DNA of 64,000 nt from Oscillospiraceae bacterium (lineage in GTDB: Bacteria > Bacillota > Clostridia > Oscillospirales > Ruminococcaceae), in the NCBI GenBank assembly GCA_024404875.1, contig JAKSPK010000003.1, positions 16,497-80,496 of the forward strand, in the 5' to 3' direction. A model generated the notes under the pieces. That model was not told where the DNA came from. It saw only the letters and a program-made list of their open reading frames with translations, and did not search any database. Position numbers and translations under genes: made by a program. Shown here in pieces: positions 4,728-45,366 of the stretch (the first letter of the stretch is position 1; each line of letters begins with the position of its first letter).

Positions 4728-4851
4728 CCTCCATAGTATACATTCTTTTCCTTAGCTTCCGGCCAGAACAACACGAAATTATCCGTTCTCCGACGGCTGT
4801 CTCTATCCGGCGGGCTGCGGCACCGGGTTAATCCCCCTCACACCATAAATA

Positions 4852-4883
4852 GCGCCCCCGCAGAAAATGATTCTGCGGGGGCG
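4852..4883 (-). terminator. Hairpin terminator after coaX
   Basis: GC-rich stem CGCCCCCGCAGAA/TTCTGCGGGGGCG lies 20 nt downstream of the coaX stop. The U-tract on the minus strand is weak (CTATTTAT). Confidence 0.5.
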
Positions 4884-4902
4884 TCCGCTTGGGTTTTGTT
4901 AT

Positions 4903-5703
4903 TTATGCTTCGGAGCCGGAGACTTTCCCGGAATTTGTCGCTGTATTGCGCTGATAGATCAGCATCAGTCCCTTGAGCAGCAGATGCTCGTCATGAATGA
5001 TCTTTCGTCGGCAGAAGGGAATGATGCGCGGTGCATTGCCGCCGGTCGCTACGACCGTACACGGCTGTCCCAGTTCCTCCTCAATGCGTGCGGTCACGCC
5101 GTCGATCGCGCAGGCGGTGCTGTATATAATCCCGCTTTTCAGGCAATCAACGGTATTCGCTGCAATGAGCTTTTTCGGCGGTTCAAGTGATATTTCCGGC
5201 AGCTGTGCGGCGCGTCCTGTGAGTGAATCCAGCGCAACACGCACACCGGGAATGATGATCCCGCCGATAAATGTTTTGCTCGCATCGACAACGGAAACCG
5301 TCGTCGCTGTGCCCATATCGACAGTAATGACCGGACAGGGATAATAATGGGAAGCAGCAGCAGCATCTGCGACACGGTCACTGCCGAGCGCTGCAGGATT
5401 GTCCACATGAATTTTCAGACCGGTTTTTACCCCTGCGCCCAGAACCAACGGCTCTTTCCCAGTCATCCGAAGAATTGAGCTTCGGACGGTCTGCGTGACA
5501 GGCGGCACGACAGACGAAATGATACATCCATCGAAATCCCGGAAGTCCATGTCATTCAGCTCAAGGACGGTTTGGATCAGGACAATGTATTCCAGATCGG
5601 TTGAAAGCCGTTCCGTTGACATCCGCTCCATAAAGATGATCCTGTCATCTTCAAAGCTGCTGACAACGATATTTGTATTGCCGATATCGACAGCCAGAAT
5701 CAT
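4903..5703 (-). CDS. coaX: Type III pantothenate kinase
   Basis: 266 aa. The N-terminus MILAVDIGNTNIV and the ...ATGGNA... segment are typical of the CoaX/acetate-sugar kinase fold. The start lies 3 nt after the upstream stop. Confidence 0.9.
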   Translation of the reverse strand: MILAVDIGNTNIVVSSFEDDRIIFMERMSTERLSTDLEYIVLIQTVLELNDMDFRDFDGCIISSVVPPVTQTVRSSILRMTGKEPLVLGAGVKTGLKIHVDNPAALGSDRVADAAAASHYYPCPVITVDMGTATTVSVVDASKTFIGGIIIPGVRVALDSLTGRAAQLPEISLEPPKKLIAANTVDCLKSGIIYSTACAIDGVTARIEEELGQPCTVVATGGNAPRIIPFCRRKIIHDEHLLLKGLMLIYQRNTATNSGKVSGSEA

Positions 5704-9521: not shown

Positions 9522-12500
9522 TTACACCTCAATTTCTCCGCTGAATACCAGAACCGCATCACCGGTCATATAAACAGCATCCTCTGTATAACGGATCACG
9601 AGATCGCCGCCGTTCAGATGAACTGTGACTTCCGTATCCGGTTCGCAATATCCGTTTCTGACTGCTGCTGCCGCCGCTGCACAGGCACCCGTTCCACAGG
9701 CCATCGTCTCACCGGATCCGCGTTCCCAAACGCGCATCCGCAGCGTATGAGCGTCGATAACCTGCACAAATTCTGTATTGACCTGCTCCGGGAAAACAGG
9801 ATGATGCTCGAACTCCGGCCCGACCGTTTCAAGATCGACCGCCCCGGCATTGAAAACAACACAGTGCGGATTGCCCATTGACACGCAGGTGACAGTGTAT
9901 TCTTTGCCGGCAGCTGTCAGCGGCTGCGCGATTACTTCCGGCAGTTCACTCTTCACGGGAATCTGGGCAGCATCAAAAATCGCTCTGCCCATATTGACCG
10001 CAGCAGATGTGACAACACCGTTCTGCGTCGTGACCGTAACTGTGCGAAGACCGCTTTTCGTCTCGATCATGATATCCTTTTTTGTGCAGATGCCGAAATC
10101 GTAAAGATATTTCGCGACACAGCGGATCGCATTGCCGCACATATTTCCCTCGCTGCCGTCGAGATTGAACATCCGCATTCTCGCGTCTGCAATTTCCGAG
10201 GATTCGATCAGAACCAATCCGTCACCGCCGATTCCAAAATGTCGGTCGGATAGCTGAACGGCAAGCGACTCCGGCGCAGATACGCGCTTTTCCATGCAAT
10301 TCACATAAATATAATCATTGCCGCAGCCCTGCATTTTCACAAAGGGAATGCGTCGCTTGGCTGTTCGCAGATGATTCATATTCATCAGTTCCACATTGGA
10401 ATCCCGATACCCGGTGTGCAGGCAGTTTGCAACAGCTGCCGCAGTATCAGTACATGTCAGACAAGGAATGCCGAGCGCAACCGCTTTCTTCCGGATCTTC
10501 GCTCCGTCGCGGGCAGCCATACGCGCATTTGCATCTGTTGAGACAATATAGCGGATCGTTCCATTCTCCATGAGATCGAAGGTCTCCGTATCGCCGGTGT
10601 GCAGCTTGCGCAGCATATGGACGGATAAGCCCGCGGAACGCAGTGCATCTGCGGTTCCCTCCGTTGCAAACAATTTGAAATCAAGCCGTGCAAATTTCCG
10701 TGCAATTTCGATGATATCCGGCTTGTCCGCGTCACACACCGTGAGCAGAACGCCGTTCTGATTTTTGCCGCTGTCCTCAAGCCGGTAACCGGCCGCACGA
10801 AGTCCTTTGTAAAGTGCTTCGGTCAGCGTTTTACCGATGCCGATGACCTCACCGGTCGATTTCATTTCCGGTCCGAGCATGGATTCGCCGCCAATTTTCT
10901 GGAATGAAAATACCGGTACTTTGACGGCGGTAAAGGGCGGTGTTTTGTAATAGCCCGTGCCGTATTCCATGGCCGCAAGTTTCTCGCCGAGACAGACACG
11001 CATTGCACAGTCGCAGAGCGGCAGACCGGTCAGCTTGCTCATGAACGGGACTGTTCGCGATGCACGCGGATTCACTTCGATCACATAGAGTGACTGCCCT
11101 TTGACGATATATTGCAAATTGATGAGTCCGACTGCATGCAGGCCGAGACAGATCTTTTTTGTATCCGTGAGAATCTTTTTCCGCATATCATCATCGATAT
11201 GCACCGGCGGACAGATCGCAATCGAGTCGCCGGAATGTACGCCCGTACGCTCAATATGCTCCATGATGCCGGGGATCAGAATATCCTTGCCATCACAGAT
11301 CGCATCAACTTCGATCTCTGTGCCGCGGATATACTGATCGATCAGCACAGGATTATCAATGCCGTCTGCAAGAATATTCTGCATGAATGCTTTGACATTG
11401 TCCGCATCAAATGCGATGTTCATATTTTGTCCGCCCAGCACATAGGAAGGGCGTACCAGAACCGGCAGACCGAGCTTTTTGACGGCCTCATCTGCTTCCT
11501 CGAGCGTATTGACAGTACAGCCGCGAGGCCGTTCGATCTCAAGCGACTCCAGCAGTGCGTCAAAGCGTTCGCGGTCTTCCGCGAGGTCAATGCTGTCCGC
11601 CGTTGCGCCGAGCAGCCGATAGCCTGCTTCCTCAATCACCCGTGCAAGCCGGATCGCTGTCTGTCCGCCGAATGCCGTGACCACGCCAACAGGCTTTTCC
11701 AGTGCAAGGATAGAGAGCACATCCTCCGGCGTCAGCGGCTCAAAATACAGCCGGTCAGCCGTATCAAAATCCGTCGAAACAGTCTCCGGATTATTGTTAA
11801 TCAGCACAACCTCATAGCCTGCACTTTTTAGTATCTGCACACAGTGAACTGCCGAATAATCGAACTCGATGCCCTGTCCGATTCGGATCGGCCCGCTGCC
11901 CAAAACGACAACGGTCTGATGCGGTTTTCCGGCAAGAAACAGAGCTGCTTCATCGGCTTCCGGTGTTGCATCCGGATTGCAGACGCCATAAAAATACGGT
12001 GTTTCTGCTGCAAATTCGCCCGCGCAGGTATCAACCATACGATAGATCGGACGATACTTTTTCTGCGGCAGGCCGCATCCGGAAAACGCTGCAATCGTAT
12101 CATCCGGATAGCCGAATCGCTTGGCAGTCCGATAAAGATCATCGGTCAGCGGTGCATTTTCCAGGCTGTTCTCGCAGACAACGAGATCGTGGATCTTATG
12201 CAGAAACCAAGTGTCGATTTTCGATAATGCGTGAATTTCATCTGCTGTCATTCCGCGCCTGAACGCCTCTGCTGCTGCAAACAAGCGTACATCATCCGCA
12301 TGAACCAAATGCTCATGCAATTCGCTGTCAGAGACATTGCGCAGCGCCCGCACGAGCAGCGCACTATGCTTGACTTCAGCGCCGCGCAGTGCTTTCAGCA
12401 GCGCAGATTCAAAGCTGTCGGAGATGGCCATGACCTCTCCGGTCGCTTTCATCTGCGTGCCAAGCTGATGTGACGACCCTGAAAATTTCTCGAACGGAAA

Positions 12501-13577
12501 CTTCGGCATCTTCACAGCTACATAATCCAAAGCAGGCTCAAATGCAGCGGATGTCTTGCCGGTCACTTTATTCGCGATTTCGTACAGTCTGTAGCCAACC
12601 GCAATCTTTGCGGCAACCTTGGCGATCGGATAACCCGTTGCTTTGGATGCAAGTGCTGATGAGCGGGATACACGCGGATTCACCTCAATGACGGCATATT
12701 CAAACGAATCCGGATTGAGTGCGAACTGACAGTTGCATCCGCCCTCAATTTTCAGAACCTCCGCGATTTTTAACGCAGCAGTCCGCAGCATCTGGTACTC
12801 TTTGTCTGCAAGCGTGACTGCCGGCGCAATTACAATACTGTCGCCCGTATGAATGCCGACCGGATCGAAGTTTTCCATCGAACAGACTGTGATTTTATTA
12901 CCGTCCGCATCTCGCACGATCTCAAACTCGATCTCCTTCCAGCCTGCGATGCACCGCTCCACCAGGATCTGATGAATCGGTGAAAGCCGCAGACCGTTTT
13001 CCGCGATCCGCTCCAAATCATCCGGCGTTTCCGCGATGCCGCCGCCGGTGCCTCCGAGCGTAAATGCCGGGCGGATAATGACCGGATAACCGATCTCCTC
13101 TGCAATGCTGCGTGCGGTCTCCATGTCCTCGGCAATACCGGACGGAACGCATGGCTGTCCGATCGAATCCATTGTTTCCTTGAACAGCTTGCGGTCTTCA
13201 GCACGCGCGATTGTCTCCGGATCAGCGCCAAGCAGCCGGATTCCGTTTTCTGCGAGAAATCCGCTTTCCGCGAGCTCCGCGCAAAGGTTTAATCCTGTCT
13301 GTCCGCCAAGACCGGAAAGGATGCTGTCCGGCTTTTCCTTGAGACAAATACGCTTGATGACCTCCGTTTTCAAAGGTTCCATATAGATCTGATCAGCAAT
13401 CCGTGTATCAGTCATGATCGTGGCCGGATTGGAATTGACCAGCACAACCTCGATCCCTTCCTCTTTCAGAGCACGACAAGCCTGTGTACCGGAATAGTCA
13501 AATTCCGCAGCCTGCCCAATGACGATCGGCCCGGAGCCGATGACAAGAACCTTATGAATATCCTGATTCAGCGGCAT
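9522..13577 (-). CDS. carB: Carbamoyl-phosphate synthase large subunit fused in frame to diaminopimelate epimerase (CarB-DapF)
   Basis: One 1351-aa ORF. The first ~1070 aa are a complete CarB: two ATP-grasp halves and an MGS-like allosteric domain ending ...NVELMNMNHL. The last 276 aa (9525-10352) are a complete DapF with both catalytic Cys motifs (GNMCGNAIRC and ETMACGTGACAA). There is no stop and no SD at the junction. Confidence 0.85.
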   Translation of the reverse strand: MPLNQDIHKVLVIGSGPIVIGQAAEFDYSGTQACRALKEEGIEVVLVNSNPATIMTDTRIADQIYMEPLKTEVIKRICLKEKPDSILSGLGGQTGLNLCAELAESGFLAENGIRLLGADPETIARAEDRKLFKETMDSIGQPCVPSGIAEDMETARSIAEEIGYPVIIRPAFTLGGTGGGIAETPDDLERIAENGLRLSPIHQILVERCIAGWKEIEFEIVRDADGNKITVCSMENFDPVGIHTGDSIVIAPAVTLADKEYQMLRTAALKIAEVLKIEGGCNCQFALNPDSFEYAVIEVNPRVSRSSALASKATGYPIAKVAAKIAVGYRLYEIANKVTGKTSAAFEPALDYVAVKMPKFPFEKFSGSSHQLGTQMKATGEVMAISDSFESALLKALRGAEVKHSALLVRALRNVSDSELHEHLVHADDVRLFAAAEAFRRGMTADEIHALSKIDTWFLHKIHDLVVCENSLENAPLTDDLYRTAKRFGYPDDTIAAFSGCGLPQKKYRPIYRMVDTCAGEFAAETPYFYGVCNPDATPEADEAALFLAGKPHQTVVVLGSGPIRIGQGIEFDYSAVHCVQILKSAGYEVVLINNNPETVSTDFDTADRLYFEPLTPEDVLSILALEKPVGVVTAFGGQTAIRLARVIEEAGYRLLGATADSIDLAEDRERFDALLESLEIERPRGCTVNTLEEADEAVKKLGLPVLVRPSYVLGGQNMNIAFDADNVKAFMQNILADGIDNPVLIDQYIRGTEIEVDAICDGKDILIPGIMEHIERTGVHSGDSIAICPPVHIDDDMRKKILTDTKKICLGLHAVGLINLQYIVKGQSLYVIEVNPRASRTVPFMSKLTGLPLCDCAMRVCLGEKLAAMEYGTGYYKTPPFTAVKVPVFSFQKIGGESMLGPEMKSTGEVIGIGKTLTEALYKGLRAAGYRLEDSGKNQNGVLLTVCDADKPDIIEIARKFARLDFKLFATEGTADALRSAGLSVHMLRKLHTGDTETFDLMENGTIRYIVSTDANARMAARDGAKIRKKAVALGIPCLTCTDTAAAVANCLHTGYRDSNVELMNMNHLRTAKRRIPFVKMQGCGNDYIYVNCMEKRVSAPESLAVQLSDRHFGIGGDGLVLIESSEIADARMRMFNLDGSEGNMCGNAIRCVAKYLYDFGICTKKDIMIETKSGLRTVTVTTQNGVVTSAAVNMGRAIFDAAQIPVKSELPEVIAQPLTAAGKEYTVTCVSMGNPHCVVFNAGAVDLETVGPEFEHHPVFPEQVNTEFVQVIDAHTLRMRVWERGSGETMACGTGACAAAAAAVRNGYCEPDTEVTVHLNGGDLVIRYTEDAVYMTGDAVLVFSGEIEV

Positions 13578-14742: not shown

Positions 14743-16812
14743 TCAAACACTGTAAAGCAGATCTGCATAGGTGGGGAAGGGCTGATATTCCTTTGCTGTC
14801 AGCGGTTCAAGCTGATCGGCAGCGGCACGCAGCTCATTCATTGCAGGAATGATCGTGTCACGGCAGTAGTACGACGGATGCTCGTTATCAAAGAGTCCGA
14901 TCATCACGTTTTCAAGTGCTTCAGTCTTTGCCGCGATCTCGTCGGTCAGCGCGCTGACTCTCCGCAGCAGATCGGTCTCGGCCAAGCCCTGCACACCGAG
15001 CTCCTTTTTCTTCATCGCATAATCCGCAAGTGCCTCACCGTACCGGAAGCCCGCCGGAATGATCTGCGTACGAGCCATGTCGATCATCGTATTTGCTTCA
15101 ATCACAATGAGCTTCGTGTAGTTCTCAAGCAGAATATCCTTACGAGAAACGACTTCGCTGTGATTGTAAACGCCGAACCGCTTGAAGAGTGCAACATTCT
15201 TTTCAGTAGCAAATGCATGCATCGCGTCGGCTGTTGTGCGGAGATTGAGCAGACCGCGGCGCTCTGCCTCTGCAACCCATTCCTGCGAATAGTTGTTGCC
15301 GTTGAAAATGATGCGGCCATGTGTTTTCAGTGTATCCGAGAGGATTTTCTGTACTGCCTCTGCAACATCCTCTGCGCCCTCCAGACGATCAGCAAAATTG
15401 CAAAGAGCTTCTGCAAAGATCGTATTCAGCGCAATATTTGTATCAGCGATGGAGTTCTCCGAGCCGAGCATACGGAACTCAAACTTATTGCCGGTGAAAG
15501 CCATCGGTGAAGTACGGTTGCGGTCTGAGGTGTCCTTCTTGAAATCGGGGAGAACATGAACGCCGGTCATCAGGGTTTCGTGGTGCTTCTGCTCATCGCG
15601 GCCCTCAGCGGCTGCTTCGAGCTGGAGCTGGAGGTCATCTCCAAGATATACCGAAACGATCGCAGGCGGTGCTTCATTTGCGCCAAGACGGTGGTCGTTT
15701 CCAGCGGATGCAACCGACATTCTCAGCAGATCCTGATGCTCATCTACAGCAGCAACAACCGCTGCAACCATCAGCAGGAACAGTCTTTTGCGCTCCGGCG
15801 TTTTGCCCGGTGCAAAGAGGTTGATGCCGGTATCGGTCGAGAGCGACCAGTTATTGTGCTTGCCGCTGCCATTGACACCTGCGAACGGTTTTTCATGCAG
15901 CAGGCACATCAGTCCGTGGCGTTCCGCGACCTTCTTCATGATCTCCATTGTGAGCTGGTTGTGGTCGCAGGCGAGGTTCATAGTCGTATAAACAGGTGCA
16001 AGCTCATGCTGTGCAGGAGCGACCTCATTATGCTCTGTCTTCGCGTAGATGCCGAGCTTCCAAAGTTCCTCGTTCAGATCCTTCATGAAAGCCTGTACAC
16101 GCGGCCGGATCACGCCGAAATAATGATCCTCCATCTCCTGACCTTTCGGTGCTTTTGCTCCGAACAGTGTTCTGCCGGTAAAGAGGATATCCTTGCGCTG
16201 CTTCGCGATTTCGCGGTCGATAAGGAAGTATTCCTGCTCCGGACCGACCGTTCCGCTGACGCGCTTCACATCGTCAAAGCCCAGCAGATGCAGCACCTTG
16301 ACTGCCTGCTCGCTGACGGCTTCCATAGAACGCAGCAGCGGCGTTTTCTTATCAAGTGCCTCACCGCTGTAGGAATAAAATGCAGTCGGGATGCACAGGC
16401 TGTTTTCCTTGATGAATGCATAGGATGTCGGGTCCCAGGCCGTATAGCCGCGTGCTTCAAAAGTTGCGCGGAGACCGCCCGACGGGAACGAAGATGCATC
16501 CGGTTCGCCCTTGATCAGCTCCTTGCCGGAAAATTCAAGAATCGCACCGCCATTTCCATCAGGGGAAAGGAAGCTGTCATGCTTCTCTGCGGTGATACCG
16601 GTCATCGGCTGGAACCAGTGCGTGTAATGCGTTGCGCCGTTTTCCACAGCCCATTCACGCATCGCGCTGGCGACCACATCCGCAACGGTCTGGTCAATGT
16701 CCTTGCCGTCCGCAATGGTCTCGTGCAGGGATTTGTAGACCGCTTTCGGCAGGCGCTCCTGCATTACGGCATCATTGAACACAAGTCTTCCGAATACATC
16801 AGTCGGTTTCAT
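14743..16812 (-). CDS. glnN: Glutamine synthetase type III
   Basis: 689 aa. The length and the N-terminus [29 protein letters not shown]...[12 protein letters not shown] are typical of GSIII. Confidence 0.9.
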
Positions 16813-16882
16813 AATCTTACATCCTTTCTGTATTTGGCATCTGTCCGAAATGCCGCTCTATGTATGACGGCATTCAGCAGAT

Positions 16883-16941
16883 AAACAAAAAAACAGCAAC
16901 GGCATCACGGGACTCATCCCGAAACAGCGCCGTTGCTGTTT
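16883..16941 (-). promoter_or_regulatory. Leader attenuator: intrinsic terminator overlapped by tandem small hairpins (ANTAR-target-like)
   Basis: The terminator is AACAGCAACGGC/GCCGTTGCTGTT (12 bp, perfect) plus T7. The alternative hairpins are CAGC-AACGGC-GCTG (16925-16938) and CGGG-ATGAGT-CCCG (16908-16921). Confidence 0.65.
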
Positions 16942-16951
16942 TCTGTATCAC

Positions 16952-16980
16952 ATCATAACACATTTTTTTGAATTTGTCAA
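16952..16980 (-). promoter_or_regulatory. Sigma-A-type promoter TTGACA-17-TATGAT (TGn extended -10) for glnN
   Basis: The minus strand reads TTGACAaattcaaaaaaatgtgtTATGAT. Confidence 0.65.
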
Positions 16981-16984
16981 TCAC

Positions 16985-17013
16985 TTGACAGAAAATTCAC
17001 AAAGTTTTACAAT
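16985..17013 (+). promoter_or_regulatory. Consensus promoter TTGACA-17-TACAAT pointing antisense into the ANTAR gene and glnA
   Basis: The plus strand reads TTGACAgaaaattcacaaagtttTACAAT. Its -35 box forms a palindrome (TGTCAA-tcac-TTGACA) with the -35 box of the glnN promoter. Confidence 0.4.
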
Positions 17014-17027
17014 CTGCCCATGAATTT

Positions 17028-17618
17028 TCATCGTTGCTCATAGGTTTTTAGGATATTTTCAGCAGCCGTCCGTTTTGAGATACGCTGATTCATTGCCTGC
17101 TGCTCAATGTATTTATGCGCCTGCTCCTCGGTCATTCCGAGATACTGAATAAGCGCATACTTTGCACGGTTGACAATGCGCAGATCGATGAGCTTGATCT
17201 GCAGGCGCTGGTTTTCCAGCAACAGAATCTGCGTTCTCGAATAGGCAGAGGCAGCATCATACAGCACCTGATGAAACGAAAAATGTGAGAACGGTCTGCC
17301 GAGCACAAAGATGCCGGCAGGTTCAAGCGACTGCCGGAACTCAGTCTCCTGTTCATTTTTTACGACAGCCACAACGGTCGAGGGGGTATTCTCTGCAAGA
17401 TCGCTTGCAAGCTCGGTGCCGCATTCATCAGCGAGTGGTATGTTGATAAGAACGACCGTACAGCGATTGCCCATCATTTTTTGACGTGCTTCCGTACAGG
17501 AGGCGGCACTGCCTGAGATCGTAAAGTCGCCATCCGGCAGGTTGTCCCGTACATAGCGATGAAAATTCTCGTTCGAGGAAATGACGAAAACCTCTTTCTG
17601 CTCCAAGCGTGTCAGCAT
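17028..17618 (-). CDS. ANTAR-domain RNA-binding antiterminator with degenerate receiver domain (NitR/AmiR-like)
   Basis: The C-terminus RAKYALIQYLGMTEEQAHKYIEQQAMNQRISKRTAAENIL is an ANTAR helix bundle. The ATG at 17618 has GGGGTG 8 nt upstream. The alternative GTG at 17630 overlaps the glnA stop (GTGA). Confidence 0.8.
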   Translation of the reverse strand: MLTRLEQKEVFVISSNENFHRYVRDNLPDGDFTISGSAASCTEARQKMMGNRCTVVLINIPLADECGTELASDLAENTPSTVVAVVKNEQETEFRQSLEPAGIFVLGRPFSHFSFHQVLYDAASAYSRTQILLLENQRLQIKLIDLRIVNRAKYALIQYLGMTEEQAHKYIEQQAMNQRISKRTAAENILKTYEQR

Positions 17619-24363: not shown

Positions 24364-25860
24364 TTATTCGCCTGCATGAGAGATGCCGAGAATTTCAAGC
24401 TCCTTTTCGGTCAGTCCGACACCGCGGAGCATCAGACGGTTTCCGCGCAGCGCTTCGATCGAATTGATGCCCATGCCGCCCATCAGCTCCTTGATCTCAT
24501 GCCGCCATGCGTCCATGAGATTGATGAGACGCTGCGAGCCGATATCCGGATTCAGGCGCTTGACCAGATCGGGGCGCTGTGTCGCAATGCCCCAGTTGCA
24601 TTTTCCGGTGTGGCAGCTCCGGCAGAGATGACATCCCATTGCGAGACAGGCCGCTGTCGCGATATAGCAGGCATCTGCGCCGAGCGCGATCGCCTTGACC
24701 ACATCTGCCGCAGAGCGTACAGATCCGCCGCAGACAATCGAAACATTGTTGCGGATGCCCTCATCGCGCAGCCGCTTATCGACGGCCGCAAGTGCCAGTT
24801 CAATCGGGATGCCGACATTGTCGCGGATGCGTGTCGGAGCCGCACCGGTTCCGCCGCGGAAGCCGTCGATCGCGATAATATCCGCGCCGGAGCGCGCAAT
24901 GCCGCTTGCGATCGCCGCAATGTTATGCACCGCTGCGACCTTGACAATGACCGGCAGACGGTATTCAGTCGCCTCCTTCAGCGAGAAGACAAGCTGACGC
25001 AAATCCTCGATACTGTAGATATCGTGATGCGGCGCAGGAGAGATCGCATCGCTTCCCTCCGGAATCATTCGTGTCTTGGAGACATCGCCGACAGCCTTTG
25101 TACCGGGCAGATGTCCGCCGATACCGGGCTTTGCGCCCTGTCCCATTTTGATCTCGATCGCGGCACCCGCTTCAAGATAATCCTTGTGTACGCCGAATCG
25201 GCCGGATGCGACCTGCACGATCGTATTTTTGCCATATTGGTAGAAATCCTCATGCAGACCGCCCTCGCCAGTGTTATAATAAATGCCGAGCGCTTCGGCA
25301 GCTCTCGCAAGGCTTGCATGGGCATTGTAGCTAATCGAGCCGTAGCTCATCGCAGAGAACATCACAGGCATGCTGAGCGTTAACTGCGGAGCAAGCTTGG
25401 TGTCAAGTATACCGTCCGGATTGCGCGTGATACGCTCCGGCTTTTTGCCGAGGAAAACACGCGTTTCCATCGGCTCACGCAGCGGGTCGATCGGCGGATT
25501 CGTGACCTGCGATGCGTTGATGAGGATTTTATCCCAGTAGACAGGCAGCGGATTTGGATTGCCCATAGACGAGAGCAGCACACCGCCGGTTTCGGCCTGC
25601 CGGTAGACCTCCTTGATCGTCTGATCGGAGTAATTGGCATTTTCGCGCAGGCGGCAGTCGCTCTTGACAATCTTGAGTGCCCTTGTCGGGCAGAGCGTCA
25701 CGCAGCGCTGGCAGTTGACGCATTTCGATTCATCGGCAAGCATGAACTTGCCGTCCTCATCATACCAATGCACCTCATTGGCGCATTGCCGTTCACATAC
25801 CTGACAGCGGATGCATCGGCTGTCATTACGCACGACCTCAAATTCCGGATAGAAATTCAA
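24364..25860 (-). CDS. Glutamate synthase FMN-binding/synthase domain protein with N-terminal 2x[4Fe-4S] module
   Basis: 498 aa with CIRCQVCERQC and CVNCQRCVTLCP, followed by the GltS central-domain signature (GEGG, QGAKPGIGGHLPG, IDGFRGGTGAAP). Its TTG start overlaps the upstream TGA (TTTTGA). Confidence 0.85.
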   Translation of the reverse strand: MNFYPEFEVVRNDSRCIRCQVCERQCANEVHWYDEDGKFMLADESKCVNCQRCVTLCPTRALKIVKSDCRLRENANYSDQTIKEVYRQAETGGVLLSSMGNPNPLPVYWDKILINASQVTNPPIDPLREPMETRVFLGKKPERITRNPDGILDTKLAPQLTLSMPVMFSAMSYGSISYNAHASLARAAEALGIYYNTGEGGLHEDFYQYGKNTIVQVASGRFGVHKDYLEAGAAIEIKMGQGAKPGIGGHLPGTKAVGDVSKTRMIPEGSDAISPAPHHDIYSIEDLRQLVFSLKEATEYRLPVIVKVAAVHNIAAIASGIARSGADIIAIDGFRGGTGAAPTRIRDNVGIPIELALAAVDKRLRDEGIRNNVSIVCGGSVRSAADVVKAIALGADACYIATAACLAMGCHLCRSCHTGKCNWGIATQRPDLVKRLNPDIGSQRLINLMDAWRHEIKELMGGMGINSIEALRGNRLMLRGVGLTEKELEILGISHAGE

Positions 25861-26951
25861 AACGCTCCCTCCTTTACCCGAACAATGACCGGCTCACCGC
25901 CGGCGGGCGACCAGATATTCTGAATATCCGGTGCCATCACGCGAATCGCGGCTTCCTCACTTGCGATATAGACCATATCGCCCTGCTCGCCGACAACCAT
26001 TGACCGCAGCTTCAGGCGATCGTTGAGCGCCATGAGTCCGCCCTCAAAGCCGAGGATGATCGAGAACGGCCCCGTGACCAGCATGCTCGGAAAGGCGTTC
26101 CGCAGATAGGTATAAATCTGCTTCTCTGCTTCGGGCATTTTGTCGATCGTTGACCAGAACGGTGCCGCGATGACCGCAGCCGTTTCTTCGAGCGTCAAGC
26201 CCTGCCGACGAAGCAGATAATCCGCGATATAGGCGATGACTTCGGTATCAGTCTGCAGAGTGCATTTGTAGCCGTACATCTCAATGAAGCGGCGGTTCGC
26301 GTCATAGGACGAGATCTCGCCGTTATGAACGATCGAATAATCGAGCATACAGAACGGATGCGCACCGCCCCACCAGCCCGGCGTATTCGTCGGATATCTG
26401 CCGTGCGCCGTCCAGCAGTAGGCCTCGTATTCTTCCAGCCGGTAATATCTGCCGACATCCTCCGGAAAACCGACAGCCTTGAACGCGCCCATATTCTTGC
26501 CGCAGGAGAAGACATAGCTGCCGTCCAGCTCTGCATTGATGCGGTTAACAACGCGCACCACAAGCTCCTTTTCGTCGATCTGCAAATGCCGCAGAACAGA
26601 CTGCATCGGCGAGACAAATACGCGCCGGATGATCGGCTCATCGGTGATCTGCGGAATTTTCCGCACCTTGATATGCTCGTCCTGCACGATCTCAAAGTAT
26701 TCGCGCAGCAGCGTCATGCATTCGCTCCGGCATTGCCGGTCATTGAAAAAAATATGCAGTGCATAGAAATCCTTGTATTCCGGGTAAATGCCGTATGCCG
26801 CAAAGCCGCCGCCGAGACCGTTTGAGCGGTCGTGCATCGGCACCATGCTCTGTATGACCGATTCACCGTTCATGCGTCTGCCGTCACGGGAGATCATCGC
26901 GGAAACAGCACATCCGGACGGGATGCGCACCTGGCCTTCCAGTGGGATCAT
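25857..26951 (-). CDS. Glutamate synthase class II glutamine amidotransferase domain protein
   Basis: The start was chosen at the ATG at 26951 (SD AAGGAGG 8 nt upstream), giving MIPLEGQVRIPSGCAVSAM... It contains HNGEISSY, typical of Ntn class II GATases. The track start at 26987 is rejected. Confidence 0.8.
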   Translation of the reverse strand: MIPLEGQVRIPSGCAVSAMISRDGRRMNGESVIQSMVPMHDRSNGLGGGFAAYGIYPEYKDFYALHIFFNDRQCRSECMTLLREYFEIVQDEHIKVRKIPQITDEPIIRRVFVSPMQSVLRHLQIDEKELVVRVVNRINAELDGSYVFSCGKNMGAFKAVGFPEDVGRYYRLEEYEAYCWTAHGRYPTNTPGWWGGAHPFCMLDYSIVHNGEISSYDANRRFIEMYGYKCTLQTDTEVIAYIADYLLRRQGLTLEETAAVIAAPFWSTIDKMPEAEKQIYTYLRNAFPSMLVTGPFSIILGFEGGLMALNDRLKLRSMVVGEQGDMVYIASEEAAIRVMAPDIQNIWSPAGGEPVIVRVKEGAF

Positions 26952-26971
26952 CTCAAATTCCTCCTTGCAAA

Positions 26972-27030
26972 CAAAAAAAGCGTCCATTCAGAGACACGAA
27001 TCCCGTGTATCCGAATGAACGCCTTTGTTC
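26972..27030 (-). promoter_or_regulatory. Leader attenuator of the glutamate synthase operon (terminator plus overlapping ANTAR-target-like hairpin)
   Basis: The terminator is GCGTTCATTC/GAATGGACGC plus T7. The alternative hairpin GAAC-AAAGGC-GTTC (27017-27030) sequesters the 5' terminator arm. An inner hairpin CACG-GGATT-CGTG is also present. Confidence 0.6.
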
Positions 27031-33989: not shown

Positions 33990-35448
33990 TGAGCGCCTCC
34001 TGTTCCTTCAGCGCACGGACGACCGCCGCTGCTTTGTTCATGCATTCCTGATATTCCTTTTCCGGCACGGAATCCGCGACGATTCCCGCACCGCTGCAAA
34101 CATAGACCGTATCGCCCTTGCGGTAAGCGAGTCGGATCGCGATACAGGCATCCAGATCGCCCTGAAAAGAGAGATAGCCGACCGCGCCGCCATAGATGCC
34201 GCGCTTTGCGCCCTCAAGCTGACCGATCAGCTGGCAGGCACGGATCTTCGGCGCACCGGAAAGCGTTCCGGCAGGCAGCACTGCAGCAACCGCATCCAGT
34301 GCATCGAATTCCGGCCGGATCTCACCGCGCACCGTCGAGCCAATGTGCATGACATGAGAATACCGCTCAATCGAATGAAGCTTTTCGACCGAGACTGAAC
34401 CGAAGCGGCTGATCTTTCCGAGATCGTTTCTGCCGAGATCGACGAGCATATTATGTTCGGCAAGCTCCTTTTCATCCGCGAGCAGATCGGCTTCGAGCGC
34501 CTTGTCCTCGGCAGCGGTCTTGCCGCGCGGTCTGGTTCCGGCGAGCGGAAAAGTATGCAGAACACCGTCCTCCAGCCGGACGAGTGTTTCCGGTGAAGCA
34601 CCTGCGGTTTCGATATCCGTGCCGGAGAAATAGAACATATACGGCGATGGATTCAGTGTCCGCAGCATCCGGTAGGTGTTAAGCAGCGAACCCTCAAACG
34701 GTGCCGAAAAACGGTTTGCGAGGACAATCTGAAAAATGTCGCCCTCATGAATATAATGCTTTGCCTTCTCGACCATTTCGCAGTATTCCGCCGGCTGAAA
34801 GAGCGGCGTCAACTCACCTGTCATGCGGCTGACCGGTTCGCTGGCGGGCTTGCCGCTGCGGATTAGATCTGCCATCTGCTGAAGCGCAAGCGATGCGCGG
34901 TGGTATTCCGTTTCCGGCTGGCTGAGCTGCATATTGGCGATCAGGATGATCTTCTGACGGAAGTGATCAAAGGCGATCACCTTGTCGAAGAGCATGAGAT
35001 CGAGATCCTGAAAATGCGCATCGTCAGCAGCAGCCGTACGGATGCTTGGCTCCTGATAGCCGAGATAATCAAATGCGAAATAGCCGACAAATCCGCCGGA
35101 AAAGGGCGGAAGCTGCGGGAGCTTCGGACTGCGGTATTTGCGCAGCAGTGAACGCAGAACCGCTGCGGGATCATCAGTCTCCGTTTCGGCATCACCGATC
35201 CGGAGTTTTCCGTCCCGGCAGGAAACATCGAGCTTCGGATCATAGCCGAGGAAGGTATAGCGCCCGTGCGATTCGGGGCCAGAGACCGATTCGAGCAGAT
35301 AGCAGTGTGCGGAAACGCGGCGGAGCTTCCGCAGAACGCCGAGCGGGGTGATGTCATCGCAGAGCAGTTCACAGCTCAGCGGCAACAGGTCATAGCTTCC
35401 CTCTGCGGCAAAGCGCCGCACCTCGTCAAGAGTGAATGATACTTGCAT
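33973..35448 (-). CDS. trpE: Anthranilate synthase component I
   Basis: 491 aa with the chorismate-binding signature ...[26 protein letters not shown]. Confidence 0.92.
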
Positions 35449-44163: not shown

Positions 44164-45366
44164 TCAAGACTCATGCTGAAGCAGTTTTGAATATGTTCTG
44201 TCAATCCCTATTGCTCCCAGCGGAGCTGTGATGAGTATCGCAAGCACTGCCACCGAAAGCACAATCTTTCCGCATGGCAAACCCAAAGACAACGGCACCG
44301 AGCCGATAGCCGCTTGAACTGTAGCTTTCGGAAGATAGGCGATCACACAGAAGATACGCTCTTTTGTGTTCAGCTCAGTACCAAACAGACACAGCCACAC
44401 CCCCACAGCCCGGAACGCAAGTGCTGTGAAGATCATCAACACAGCCATTCCTCCTGCCGACAGGGTGTATCGAATATCGACCGCAGCCCCCACAAGCACG
44501 AAAAGCATGACTTCGGCGGCGATCCACAGCTTTCCGAACTTCTCTGACAGGCCGGAAGAAACGCCCTTGTCAGTTTTCAGCTTTATCACGCAGGCCATAG
44601 CAACAACAGCGAGCAGCCCAGACAGCGCAACATACGGATTTATGAGTGTTTCTATACTCATCAGCAGAAACGATGTACCAAGCAGGATAATAACCTTTGT
44701 GCTGTTCCTGATCCTGTGCCCTTTCTGATAACAGCTTTCAAAAAGCAGATATACCAGCAGTCCGACCGCCGCACCAAGCAGAACGCCGAGCACAATGGAT
44801 ATGGGGATATTCAGGAAATCCATCACCTTTGCCGAACCGCCCTGAGCCATGGTCAAGAATGTGGAAAACAGTACGATCACAAAAATGTCATCGCAGGATG
44901 CTCCTGCAAGTATCATCTGCGGTATACTTCTTTGCGTACCCCATTTATCTTCTATCAGCCTGACCATTCTGGGAACGACCACAGCAGGAGATACCGCACT
45001 CAGCACGGCACCCATAACAGCGGCTTCGATACGGTCAACTCCGAGCAGGATCGGAGCAAACACCACATACCCGGCAATCTCACAGCAGGCGGGCACGAAG
45101 GACATCATCACCGCAGGTCTTCCGACTTTTTTCAGATCAGAAAGATTCAGCGAAAGACCTGCCTTTATCAGAATAATGATAAGTGCGATTCGCCGAAGCT
45201 CTGAGGATATGCCGAGTATAGATGGATCAAGCAAGTCAAGAACATAAGGACTTACCACAATACCCACGCCGAGCATACCGATGATGCGAGGCAGGCCGAT
45301 CTTCTCAAATACAGCAGCGGCTGACAGCCCGACAAGAAAAATGATTGCAAGTGATAACAGCATCAA
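44164..45366 (-). CDS. Cation:proton antiporter (Na+/H+ exchanger family)
   Basis: 400 aa, about 11-12 TM. The N-terminus MMLLSLAIIFLVGLSAAAVFEKIGLPRIIGMLGVGIVVSP is typical of CPA-family exchangers. Confidence 0.8.
   Translation of the reverse strand: MMLLSLAIIFLVGLSAAAVFEKIGLPRIIGMLGVGIVVSPYVLDLLDPSILGISSELRRIALIIILIKAGLSLNLSDLKKVGRPAVMMSFVPACCEIAGYVVFAPILLGVDRIEAAVMGAVLSAVSPAVVVPRMVRLIEDKWGTQRSIPQMILAGASCDDIFVIVLFSTFLTMAQGGSAKVMDFLNIPISIVLGVLLGAAVGLLVYLLFESCYQKGHRIRNSTKVIILLGTSFLLMSIETLINPYVALSGLLAVVAMACVIKLKTDKGVSSGLSEKFGKLWIAAEVMLFVLVGAAVDIRYTLSAGGMAVLMIFTALAFRAVGVWLCLFGTELNTKERIFCVIAYLPKATVQAAIGSVPLSLGLPCGKIVLSVAVLAILITAPLGAIGIDRTYSKLLQHES

Follow-up and report, generated by a model that had tools for sequence, protein, structure and literature searches.

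The glutamine synthetase-glutamate synthase (GS-GOGAT) pathway is the main ammonium uptake route of rumen and gut Clostridia, and its regulation has barely been studied. Here we ask how one gene of this pathway, glnN, which encodes a type III glutamine synthetase (GSIII), is controlled in a 64,000-nt stretch of DNA from an Oscillospiraceae bacterium (assembly GCA_024404875.1, contig JAKSPK010000003.1, positions 16,497 to 80,496; hereafter the window, numbered from its first letter). An initial annotation of the window had placed in front of glnN a promoter and a leader in which small hexaloop hairpins compete with an intrinsic terminator, and had interpreted them as a nitrogen switch operated by an ANTAR protein. 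A regulated ANTAR-type terminator serving as a nitrogen switch on a GSIII gene is supported by the folds of the leader, by their conservation and by the linkage to ANTAR genes, and we consider it probable that a protein-dependent transcription attenuator of the NitR/GnfR (ANTAR) type puts glnN under nitrogen control.

Two exclusive folds in the glnN leader

The leader is read from the minus strand and begins with an extended -10 promoter (16980-16952), consisting of TTGACA (16980-16975), a 17-nt spacer, TG (16960-16959) and TATGAT (16957-16952). The promoter scored 11/12 with its extended -10 (TGtTATGAT), which bears out the initial assignment, and it is kept in L001 and L002, two of the three closest relatives. 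Its -35 hexamer lies 47 nt beyond the end of the ANTAR gene, close to the 50 nt first estimated. The intrinsic terminator (16940-16884, minus strand) has a perfect 12-bp stem, with the 5' arm AACAGCAACGGC at 16940-16929 and the 3' arm GCCGUUGCUGUU at 16903-16892, followed by a U7 tract to 16887. The stem and tract are as originally described, and the distance of about 72 nt from the end of the U-tract to the glnN ATG agrees with the earlier figure of about 70 nt; the stem, however, begins 12 nt past the -10 hexamer, roughly at +4 of the RNA, and not some 20 nt past the promoter. From the -35 to the U-tract the window, L001 and L002 are conserved save for a few substitutions, mostly in the apical loop, and the sequences diverge from the terminator down to the ribosome binding site (RBS).

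The 5' part of the same RNA can instead form the hairpin AAACAGC-AACGGC-GCUGUUU (16941-16922, minus strand), which starts at about +3 to +5. The four pairs first noted (CAGC/GCUG), with A1 and G4 in the loop, were recovered as an alternative to the terminator 5' arm and extend to 7 bp, and the hexaloop carries A1, A2, G4 and G5; it has the features of the first hairpin as defined by Ramesh 2012 (at least 3 bp and a hexaloop with A1 and G4). In the window the terminator 5' arm consists of the 5' stem and loop of this hairpin, and the two structures are mutually exclusive. A second, apical hairpin, CGGG-AUGAGU-CCCG (16921-16908, minus strand), is indeed present in the terminator loop, where RNAfold favours 5 bp and a UGAG tetraloop. 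It forms in the terminated and read-through folds alike and therefore cannot discriminate between them or contribute to the switch.

Folded over 138 nt, the leader reached -54.9 kcal/mol (z = -5.5 against shuffles, none of 200 of which folded as well), with the terminator as the minimum-energy fold. As the initial annotation had suggested, the 63-nt leader RNA was also folded with the hexaloop hairpin enforced, which gave -15.2 kcal/mol versus -33.0 kcal/mol for the terminator fold and returned exclusive folds; the hexaloop hairpin alone has -7.2 kcal/mol. When folding was followed along the growing chain, the hexaloop hairpin formed first and persisted until the 3' arm emerged, whereupon the terminator took over. 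In this model the order of folding resembles that of a default-off attenuator, in which the first hairpin would have to be held by a factor. A covariance model of the hairpin scored two sites in the window, at 25.0 bits before glnN and 25.5 bits before the glutamate synthase (GOGAT) operon; both were in the seed of the model, and the informative figure is their distance from the best of the remaining matches in 128 kb, at 12.7 bits. This weak match (34960-34983, plus strand) lies antisense within the anthranilate synthase gene and was put down to chance.

Three further features surround the leader. A palindrome, TGTCAA-GTGA-TTGACA (16975-16990), overlaps the glnN -35 and is kept in L001 and L002 as TTGTCAA-AGTA-TTGACAA; it could be a DNA operator adding promoter-level control, or two back-to-back -35 boxes. 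On the plus strand a promoter-like site (16985-17013; TTGACA, 17 nt, TACAAT; 11/12) is antisense to the ANTAR gene, reminiscent of an antisense RNA that has been described for clostridial glnA; neither L001 nor L002 keeps its -10, and it is probably due to chance. A stable hairpin (AUCUGCUGAAUGCCGUC...GGCAUUUCGGACAGAU; 16835-16880, minus strand) that lies past the terminator and ahead of the glnN RBS was rejected as a leader element, being absent or different even in L001 and L002.

The hexaloop hairpin in related leaders

Eighty genomic loci with relatives of this GSIII were fetched, of which 78 had usable upstream regions. Two of the relatives show 92-93% identity and the rest about 60-64%, the latter coming from diverse Clostridia and a few metagenome-assembled genomes labelled Spirochaetes. 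The pattern stem-AAnGGC-stem overlapping a terminator was present in about 45 of the 78 glnN leaders, most commonly as ACAGC-AAAGGC-GCUGU, and wherever the hexaloop hairpin was found in glnN leaders it overlaps an intrinsic terminator. Two geometries occur among 69 leaders: the terminator 5' arm is made of the loop and 3' stem in 42 (the classical form) and of the 5' stem and loop in 27, the window included. In both, the nucleotides of the loop become part of the terminator. A loose sequence anchor, CA[AC].G[GA].G, had proved too permissive (65 matches versus 17 expected), and curated hits were used instead.

When 68 hairpins of glnN and other leaders were aligned, C9, A10, A11, G13 and G16 proved invariant, and the loop reads AAnGGC. 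Paired cells amount to 85% versus 64% in shuffles, the covariation score is 0.656 versus 0.256 (reached by none of 500 shuffles), and sliding the stem partners abolished the pairing signal. Because the first three stem pairs were required by the search, the pairing statistic is partly built in, and the cleanest covariation evidence is therefore the unselected fourth pair, which is CG in 33, GC in 15 and AU in 13 and is paired in 66 of the 68. By this comparison the hexaloop element is evidently more than chance. The alignment of orthologous leaders, which the initial annotation had recommended for both small stems, thus found the first hairpin conserved and covarying and the second variable. 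In L032 (Claveliimonas monacensis), tandem hexaloop/terminator units, CGGC-AACGGU-GUCG and GCGGC-AAUGGA-GUCGC, stand before glnN (4808-4960), and a third unit stands before the divergent glnA-like/ANTAR operon. Besides this species (strain DSM 108991), cultured carriers include Herbinix hemicellulosilytica T3/55 (L048), Anaerotignum lactatifermentans (L059) and Ruminococcus flavefaciens.

Whether one hairpin or two is recognised bears on how the leader compares with known substrates. These have been defined as two A1/G4 hexaloop hairpins (P1 and P2) with a short linker and with P2 at the terminator base, A1 and G4 being the recognition residues for EutV and NasR (PMC3369931). The minimal ANTAR site has since been given as a single hexaloop (PMC8934654), and EutV antitermination requires P1 and a defined linker (PMC3369931, PMC8934654); a linker cut to 3 nt drastically lowered EutV-dependent induction (PMC3369931). 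The initial annotation had read the leader as the tandem form, in which CAGC-AACGGC-GCUG and CGGG-AUGAGU-CCCG would both be recognised by an ANTAR dimer. The two hairpins are indeed present and abutting, the second loop begins with A, and the CGGG/CCCG stem is kept in the window, L001 and L002. Against the tandem form, position 4 of the AUGAGU loop is A and not G, and the two close relatives compared over this loop, L001 and L002, have UAGAUA and ACGAUU (L081, the third of the closest relatives, was left out). Across the 69 leaders the equivalent part has loops of 3-15 nt with no conserved A1/G4, a weak second A1/G4 candidate occurs in 12 only, and a discrete second hairpin was not found in most. 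Only 0-3 nt separate the first hairpin from the apical one, versus 5-12 nt in eut leaders, and at 3 nt EutV-dependent induction is already drastically lowered; the second hairpin, common to both folds, has no part in the switch. A model of two A..G.. hexaloops, scanned over the 78 glnN leaders, gave 8 matches, mostly spurious, and was dropped. We consider the canonical dual-hexaloop substrate unlikely.

Nor is there a hairpin further upstream that could take the part of P1. Of about 65 leaders, 52 have a promoter (score at least 10/12) whose end is 10-22 nt upstream of the loop (median 15), so that the stem starts at about +1 to +6 of the transcript, and with the -10 ending a median of 15 nt before the loop there is no room for an upstream P1. 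In the window, UGUCA-AGUGAU-UGACA (16990-16975) was considered for this role but discarded as an RNA element, given its distance of 33 nt upstream of the first hairpin, its overlap with the -35 and its 4-nt loop, AGUA, in L001 and L002. It was kept as a possible DNA palindrome. Judged from the sequences, the recognition element is a single 5'-terminal hexaloop, which agrees with the redefinition of the minimal site and disagrees with the need of EutV for a recruitment hairpin (PMC8934654).

A second leader of the same design (27073-26973, minus strand) stands before the GOGAT operon, with TTGACA (27073-27068), TGtTATAAT (27050-27045), hairpin, terminator and RBS in the same order. Its hairpin, AAUGAAC-AAAGGC-GUUCAUU (27033-27014, minus strand; the 25.5-bit site), follows 12 nt after the promoter, its terminator with U7 spans 27026-26973 (minus strand), and the folds have -33.4 kcal/mol for the terminator versus -16.5 kcal/mol with the hexaloop hairpin. 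The operon itself (26951-21948, minus strand) encodes a split, archaeal-type glutamate synthase, recognised by the Pfam domains GATase_2, Glu_synthase with Fer4, Fer4, Pyr_redox_2 and GXGXG. The longest open reading frame (ORF) of the GOGAT amidotransferase (25857-26987, minus strand) would start at an ATG at 26987, within the terminator stem; the true start is probably the ATG at 26951, after the RBS AAGGAGG.

In other genomes the element was found before the GOGAT amidotransferase subunit, large gltB, glnA-like/ANTAR operons, amtB-glnK fusions, asnA, pyrG, purA and an aspS-like gene. The stem sequence tracks the gene class across genomes, with ACAGC/GCUGU at glnN, GAAC/GUUC at GOGAT and glnA-like genes and ACAC/GUGU at amtB-glnK (for example at L004 7118, L050 7141, L053 2578, L060 7084 and L063 7190), and the loop is common to all. 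The amtB elements lie between glnN and amtB with no promoter and are thus intercistronic attenuators. The attenuator was also seen before purA, pyrG, the aspS-like gene and a PucR-like regulator gene (L150 635, L154 4342, L039 2943, L070 3440 and L076 2763); its presence before purA, pyrG and the aspS-like gene means that the regulon reaches glutamine- or aspartate-using steps of nucleotide synthesis. In the window, the glnA-like leader (18890-18866) has no motif and no terminator, so that autoregulation is not expected at that point, unlike in L005, L032, L064 and L142.

All genes of the locus lie on the minus strand, in the order split glutamate synthase operon, pyrG (21946-20339), purF (20335-18917), a glutamine synthetase gene resembling type I (GSI-like), the ANTAR gene, the leader, glnN, carA and carB. 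The regulated gene glnN (16812-14743, minus strand; 689 aa) was identified with Pfam, and its product has all three GSIII domains (GSIII_N PF12437, E = 2.8e-81; PF00120, E = 7e-23; Gln-synt_C-ter PF18318, E = 4.6e-42). The carB ORF (9522-13577, minus strand) is unbroken over 1351 aa and combines a complete carbamoyl-phosphate synthase large chain with two DAP_epimerase domains; this carB-dapF-like ORF overlaps the end of carA by 10 nt, has genes for an aminotransferase and a lysA-like decarboxylase downstream, and may reflect either a true fusion or an artefact of assembly or frameshift. Elsewhere in the window a fluoride riboswitch (RF01734; 45408-45494, minus strand; 35.1 bits, gathering score 34) lies upstream of a gene of the Na+/H+ exchanger family (44164-45366).

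The ANTAR protein and its putative glutamine synthetase-like partner

The gene that ends shortly before the glnN promoter (17630-17028, minus strand) encodes a NitR/AmiR-like ANTAR regulator of 200 aa with a pseudo-receiver (PF03861, E = 7.6e-13). The ANTAR domain scored 48.5 bits versus a Pfam gathering cut-off of 27.3, the protein aligned with Rv1626, EutV and AmiR among matches in the Protein Data Bank (PDB), and the R..RAK and AH.Y.E..AM motifs are kept. Where EutV has the base-stacking Tyr164, the protein has His, like AmiR. The receiver (REC) match remained below the gathering score (24.5 versus 30.2). At the phospho-acceptor position (Asp54 in EutV, likewise Asp in Rv1626) the protein has Asn63, Ser-Ser stands in place of the N-terminal acidic pair, and a Pfam search of the window found no histidine kinase gene adjoining the ANTAR gene. 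Among ANTAR homologues encoded near glnN, the phospho-acceptor position is N, Q or H in 12 of 13 and D in one. With neither the Asp nor an adjacent kinase, the protein would by the usual marks not be a phosphorylatable two-component receiver.

The element accompanies the regulator gene. All 13 genome loci with an ANTAR gene at most 5 kb from glnN, as well as the window, have the motif before glnN. As an independent test, a metagenome scan was anchored on the ANTAR protein family (80 loci), the view around each anchor gene being limited to 5-6 kb. A GS-like gene lies directly upstream of the ANTAR gene in about 62 of these loci, and the exact pattern was present before glnN in 12 of the 13 that also hold glnN (in L103 before asnA-glnN). 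The thirteenth, L160, has GAGAC-GAAGGC-GUCUC about 100 nt upstream of glnN, overlapping a terminator-like stem followed by UUUUC; its GAAGGC loop, with G1 and not A1, is a natural test of the A1 requirement.

The loop itself also points to an ANTAR protein. GnfR, an ANTAR response regulator, binds RNA with CAGGCAAGGGCGCC in vitro, and its site, of consensus CAGGCAANGGCGCC, overlaps the terminators of nif, glnK and amtB leaders (PMC2995071). The loop consensus AAnGGC of the aligned hairpins is identical to that of the GnfR site, and the glnN leader presents what the minimal-site and GnfR definitions describe, namely one AANGGC hexaloop, closed by C-G with G-C or another Watson-Crick pair next to it, and overlapping the terminator of a nitrogen gene.

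The first gene of the regulator operon (18865-17627, minus strand) encodes a GSI-alpha-like (glnA-like) protein of 412 aa (Gln-synt_C, E = 6.8e-88) and overlaps the ANTAR start by 4 nt, which indicates translational coupling. The best PDB relatives of this GS-like protein are GSI-alpha enzymes (about 1e-103). It scored 345 bits versus a TIGR00653 GlnA cut-off of 429 and is about 30 residues shorter at the C-terminus than the GSI-alpha enzymes, and its flap reads RKKAP versus GYEAP in active enzymes, so that the flap Glu is lost. We take this Glu (E327 in S. typhimurium, E304 in B. subtilis) to be catalytic. Of the ANTAR-linked GS-like genes, 25 encode G at the flap position (most of them from a single, repeatedly sampled gut species), 13 encode K and 9 encode E, versus E in 5 of 5 unlinked GS genes. 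The anomaly of flap and C-terminus was seen in the window, in L001, L002, L032, L054, L059 and L064, and in many of L081-L160.

From these sequence features the GS-like protein may be a pseudoenzyme acting as a sensor. Since the ANTAR protein has no phospho-acceptor Asp and no adjacent kinase, the co-translated GS-like protein is proposed as its sensor and partner, in the manner of AmiC-AmiR, NasS-NasT and the GS-TnrA pair of B. subtilis; this analogy we put forward only tentatively. A pseudo-receiver ANTAR protein paired with a GS homologue devoid of the flap Glu suggests a kinase-free reading of nitrogen status, and if this is true a GS pseudoenzyme would be the receptor of an RNA-binding regulator. 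A possible, though doubtful, extension is a Clostridia-wide regulon (glnN, GOGAT, amtB-glnK, asnA, pyrG and purA) switched by an ANTAR antiterminator that would need one 5'-terminal hexaloop only and no recruitment hairpin, and in which the ANTAR protein would be controlled by the flap-Glu-less GS homologue as a glutamine or energy sensor, and not by phosphorylation.

Mechanism, alternatives and known systems

In the mechanism that we favour, transcription would start at the sigma-A promoter or read in from the terminator-less glnA-like/ANTAR operon, and the 7-bp hairpin with its AACGGC hexaloop would be made first. If the hairpin stays unbound, the 3' arm GCCGUUGCUGUU, emerging about 25 nt later, would capture the 5' stem and loop to build the 12-bp terminator with U7, and transcription would stop before glnN (default-off). 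When nitrogen is limiting, the ANTAR protein would bind the hexaloop and the closing C-G pair and lock the hairpin, the terminator could not nucleate, and RNA polymerase would read into glnN-carAB. The same protein would act on the twin GOGAT leader 10 kb upstream, so that GS and GOGAT would be switched together, and the GS-like protein would sense glutamine or energy status and sequester or release the ANTAR protein. The alternative folds, their conservation and covariation, the association with ANTAR genes and the identity of the loop with a bound ANTAR site argue for this scheme. We infer that this particular ANTAR protein does the binding, and likewise how the signal is directed; the on state is assigned to nitrogen limitation because of the NitR report (PMC6316151) and the function of GS-GOGAT.

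Several observations weigh against such an attenuator or narrow its reach. About 30 of the 78 glnN leaders lack the motif, and the pairing statistic carries the search requirement described above. Rfam 15, run on the whole window at gathering scores, gave no match relevant to the leader, and on 16700-17100 at E up to 10 it gave chance-level matches only (E at least 0.16). The gut ANTAR loci L104-L136 (human gut metagenome contigs of one often-sampled species, flap AFGAP) showed no motif up to a distance of 6 kb; regulator and target are therefore not always neighbours, and the targets of these ANTAR proteins must be located elsewhere or have another form. A second hexaloop of the canonical kind is lacking, and one hairpin may not suffice unless this subfamily works differently. 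Binding of the ANTAR protein to the hairpin and protein-dependent read-through are predicted from sequence here, and the sensor role of the GS-like protein, drawn from gene linkage, the missing Asp and the missing flap Glu, is speculative.

The binding factor might also be something other than an ANTAR protein, such as another RNA-binding protein, a small RNA or a small ligand. ANTAR binding is here a prediction from sequence, and in many genomes that carry the motif an ANTAR gene is lacking within 5 kb. However, at 20 nt the hairpin falls short of the size of known riboswitch aptamers, and it matches no Rfam family. Its loop has the very consensus of an RNA site to which an ANTAR protein binds in vitro, and the element and ANTAR genes occur together in two sets of loci that are independent of each other; another factor is therefore quite improbable. 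A simpler account would make the structure a plain, unregulated terminator of the upstream glnA-like/ANTAR operon, with the small hairpin incidental. There is no other terminator between the ANTAR stop at 17028 and the leader terminator, which will stop upstream read-through. This account does not provide for the conserved, near-consensus promoter between the ANTAR stop and the terminator, nor for the conserved loop and covarying stem, and the order promoter-hairpin-terminator-RBS-gene is also found with no co-oriented upstream gene (in divergent arrangements and at the GOGAT leader), all of which makes it very improbable.

Finally, ACAGC-N6-GCUGU could be taken as the operator of a dimeric repressor that would bind the DNA immediately past the promoter, as it is a palindrome at about +3 to +22 and a second conserved palindrome, TGTCAA-N4-TTGACA, overlaps the -35. 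Its half-sites, however, change compensatorily (CAGC/GCUG, GAAC/GUUC, ACAC/GUGU, CGGC/GCCG), and the conserved part is the asymmetric centre AAnGGC, which is the signature of an RNA stem-loop rather than of DNA bound by a protein; overlap with a terminator is invariable, and the element also occurs between genes with no promoter, in the amtB leaders after glnN. An operator of this kind has next to no probability in our judgement.

A protein-dependent attenuator, the reading preferred here, supplies a testable rule: a 20-nt hairpin C-AAnGGC-G with a covarying stem and terminator overlap marks nitrogen-controlled operons in uncultured Oscillospiraceae, Lachnospiraceae and their relatives, and could serve regulon annotation in metagenomes. 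The initial annotation knew of no characterisation of the switch in Ruminococcaceae, and its novelty is lower than that implied. Already in 2012, ANTAR substrates overlapping terminators were predicted in Firmicutes before genes for glutamine synthetase, ANTAR proteins, glutamate synthase, amtB (C. thermocellum Cthe_1499) and asparagine synthase (Ramesh 2012 Table S2, PMC3369931). The regulon is the same as that found here; the 2012 work differs in its dual-hairpin model and in offering predictions only, and GSIII and Oscillospiraceae are not named in it.

One of the closest known systems is NitR of C. saccharobutylicum, which, according to its citation in PMC6316151, is encoded in a glnA-nitR operon and induces GS/GOGAT genes by antitermination on nitrogen limitation. 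In C. thermocellum, a receiver-ANTAR gene stands beside a GS gene and split GOGAT genes in the same cluster (PMC4676874). As far as that citation goes, NitR resembles the present case in having the ANTAR gene directly after a GSI gene, in the induction of GS/GOGAT on nitrogen limitation and in its clostridial Firmicute host, and differs in that the regulated GS is glnA (GSI) and an antisense RNA is involved, whereas here the target is glnN (GSIII) and the glnA-like partner has lost the flap Glu. Stutz et al. 2007 (NitR) may have described the hairpin before; with that paper set aside, three points are new relative to the literature consulted: a GSIII target in rumen Oscillospiraceae, a single 5'-terminal hexaloop consistent over dozens of genomes, and the many partner GS homologues with no flap Glu.

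GnfK/GnfR of Geobacter sulfurreducens (PMC2995071) shares with the present case ANTAR antitermination of nitrogen genes and a site, CAGGCAANGGCGCC (GGC-AANGGC-GCC), that overlaps the terminator and agrees with the present one in hexaloop consensus and closing pairs; a single conserved site is described, and the targets include amtB and glnK. It differs in that GnfR is a true response regulator phosphorylated by GnfK, in its sigma-54 promoters, in its nif/glnK/amtB targets as opposed to glnN/GOGAT, and in its deltaproteobacterial host. In AmiC/AmiR of Pseudomonas aeruginosa and NasS/NasT of Paracoccus denitrificans, an ANTAR protein with an unphosphorylated receiver-like domain is controlled by a ligand-sensing partner encoded together with it, and we infer a similar arrangement for the GS-like protein and the ANTAR protein; in those systems amides or nitrate are sensed by periplasmic-binding-protein-like partners, and not by a GS homologue. 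In EutV/EutW of Enterococcus faecalis (PMC3369931, PMC8934654), as here, an A1/G4 hexaloop hairpin excludes an intrinsic terminator, and the ANTAR Arg and Lys of RxxxxAK are kept in the window protein. EutV differs in its two hexaloops, its linker of 5-12 nt, P2 at the terminator base and the phosphorylated Asp54, in contrast to one hexaloop at the 5' end, Asn in place of Asp and an AmiR-like His at the Tyr164 position in the window. Two hexaloops were required in the EutV work, and leaders with one hexaloop are a natural test of how general that requirement is.

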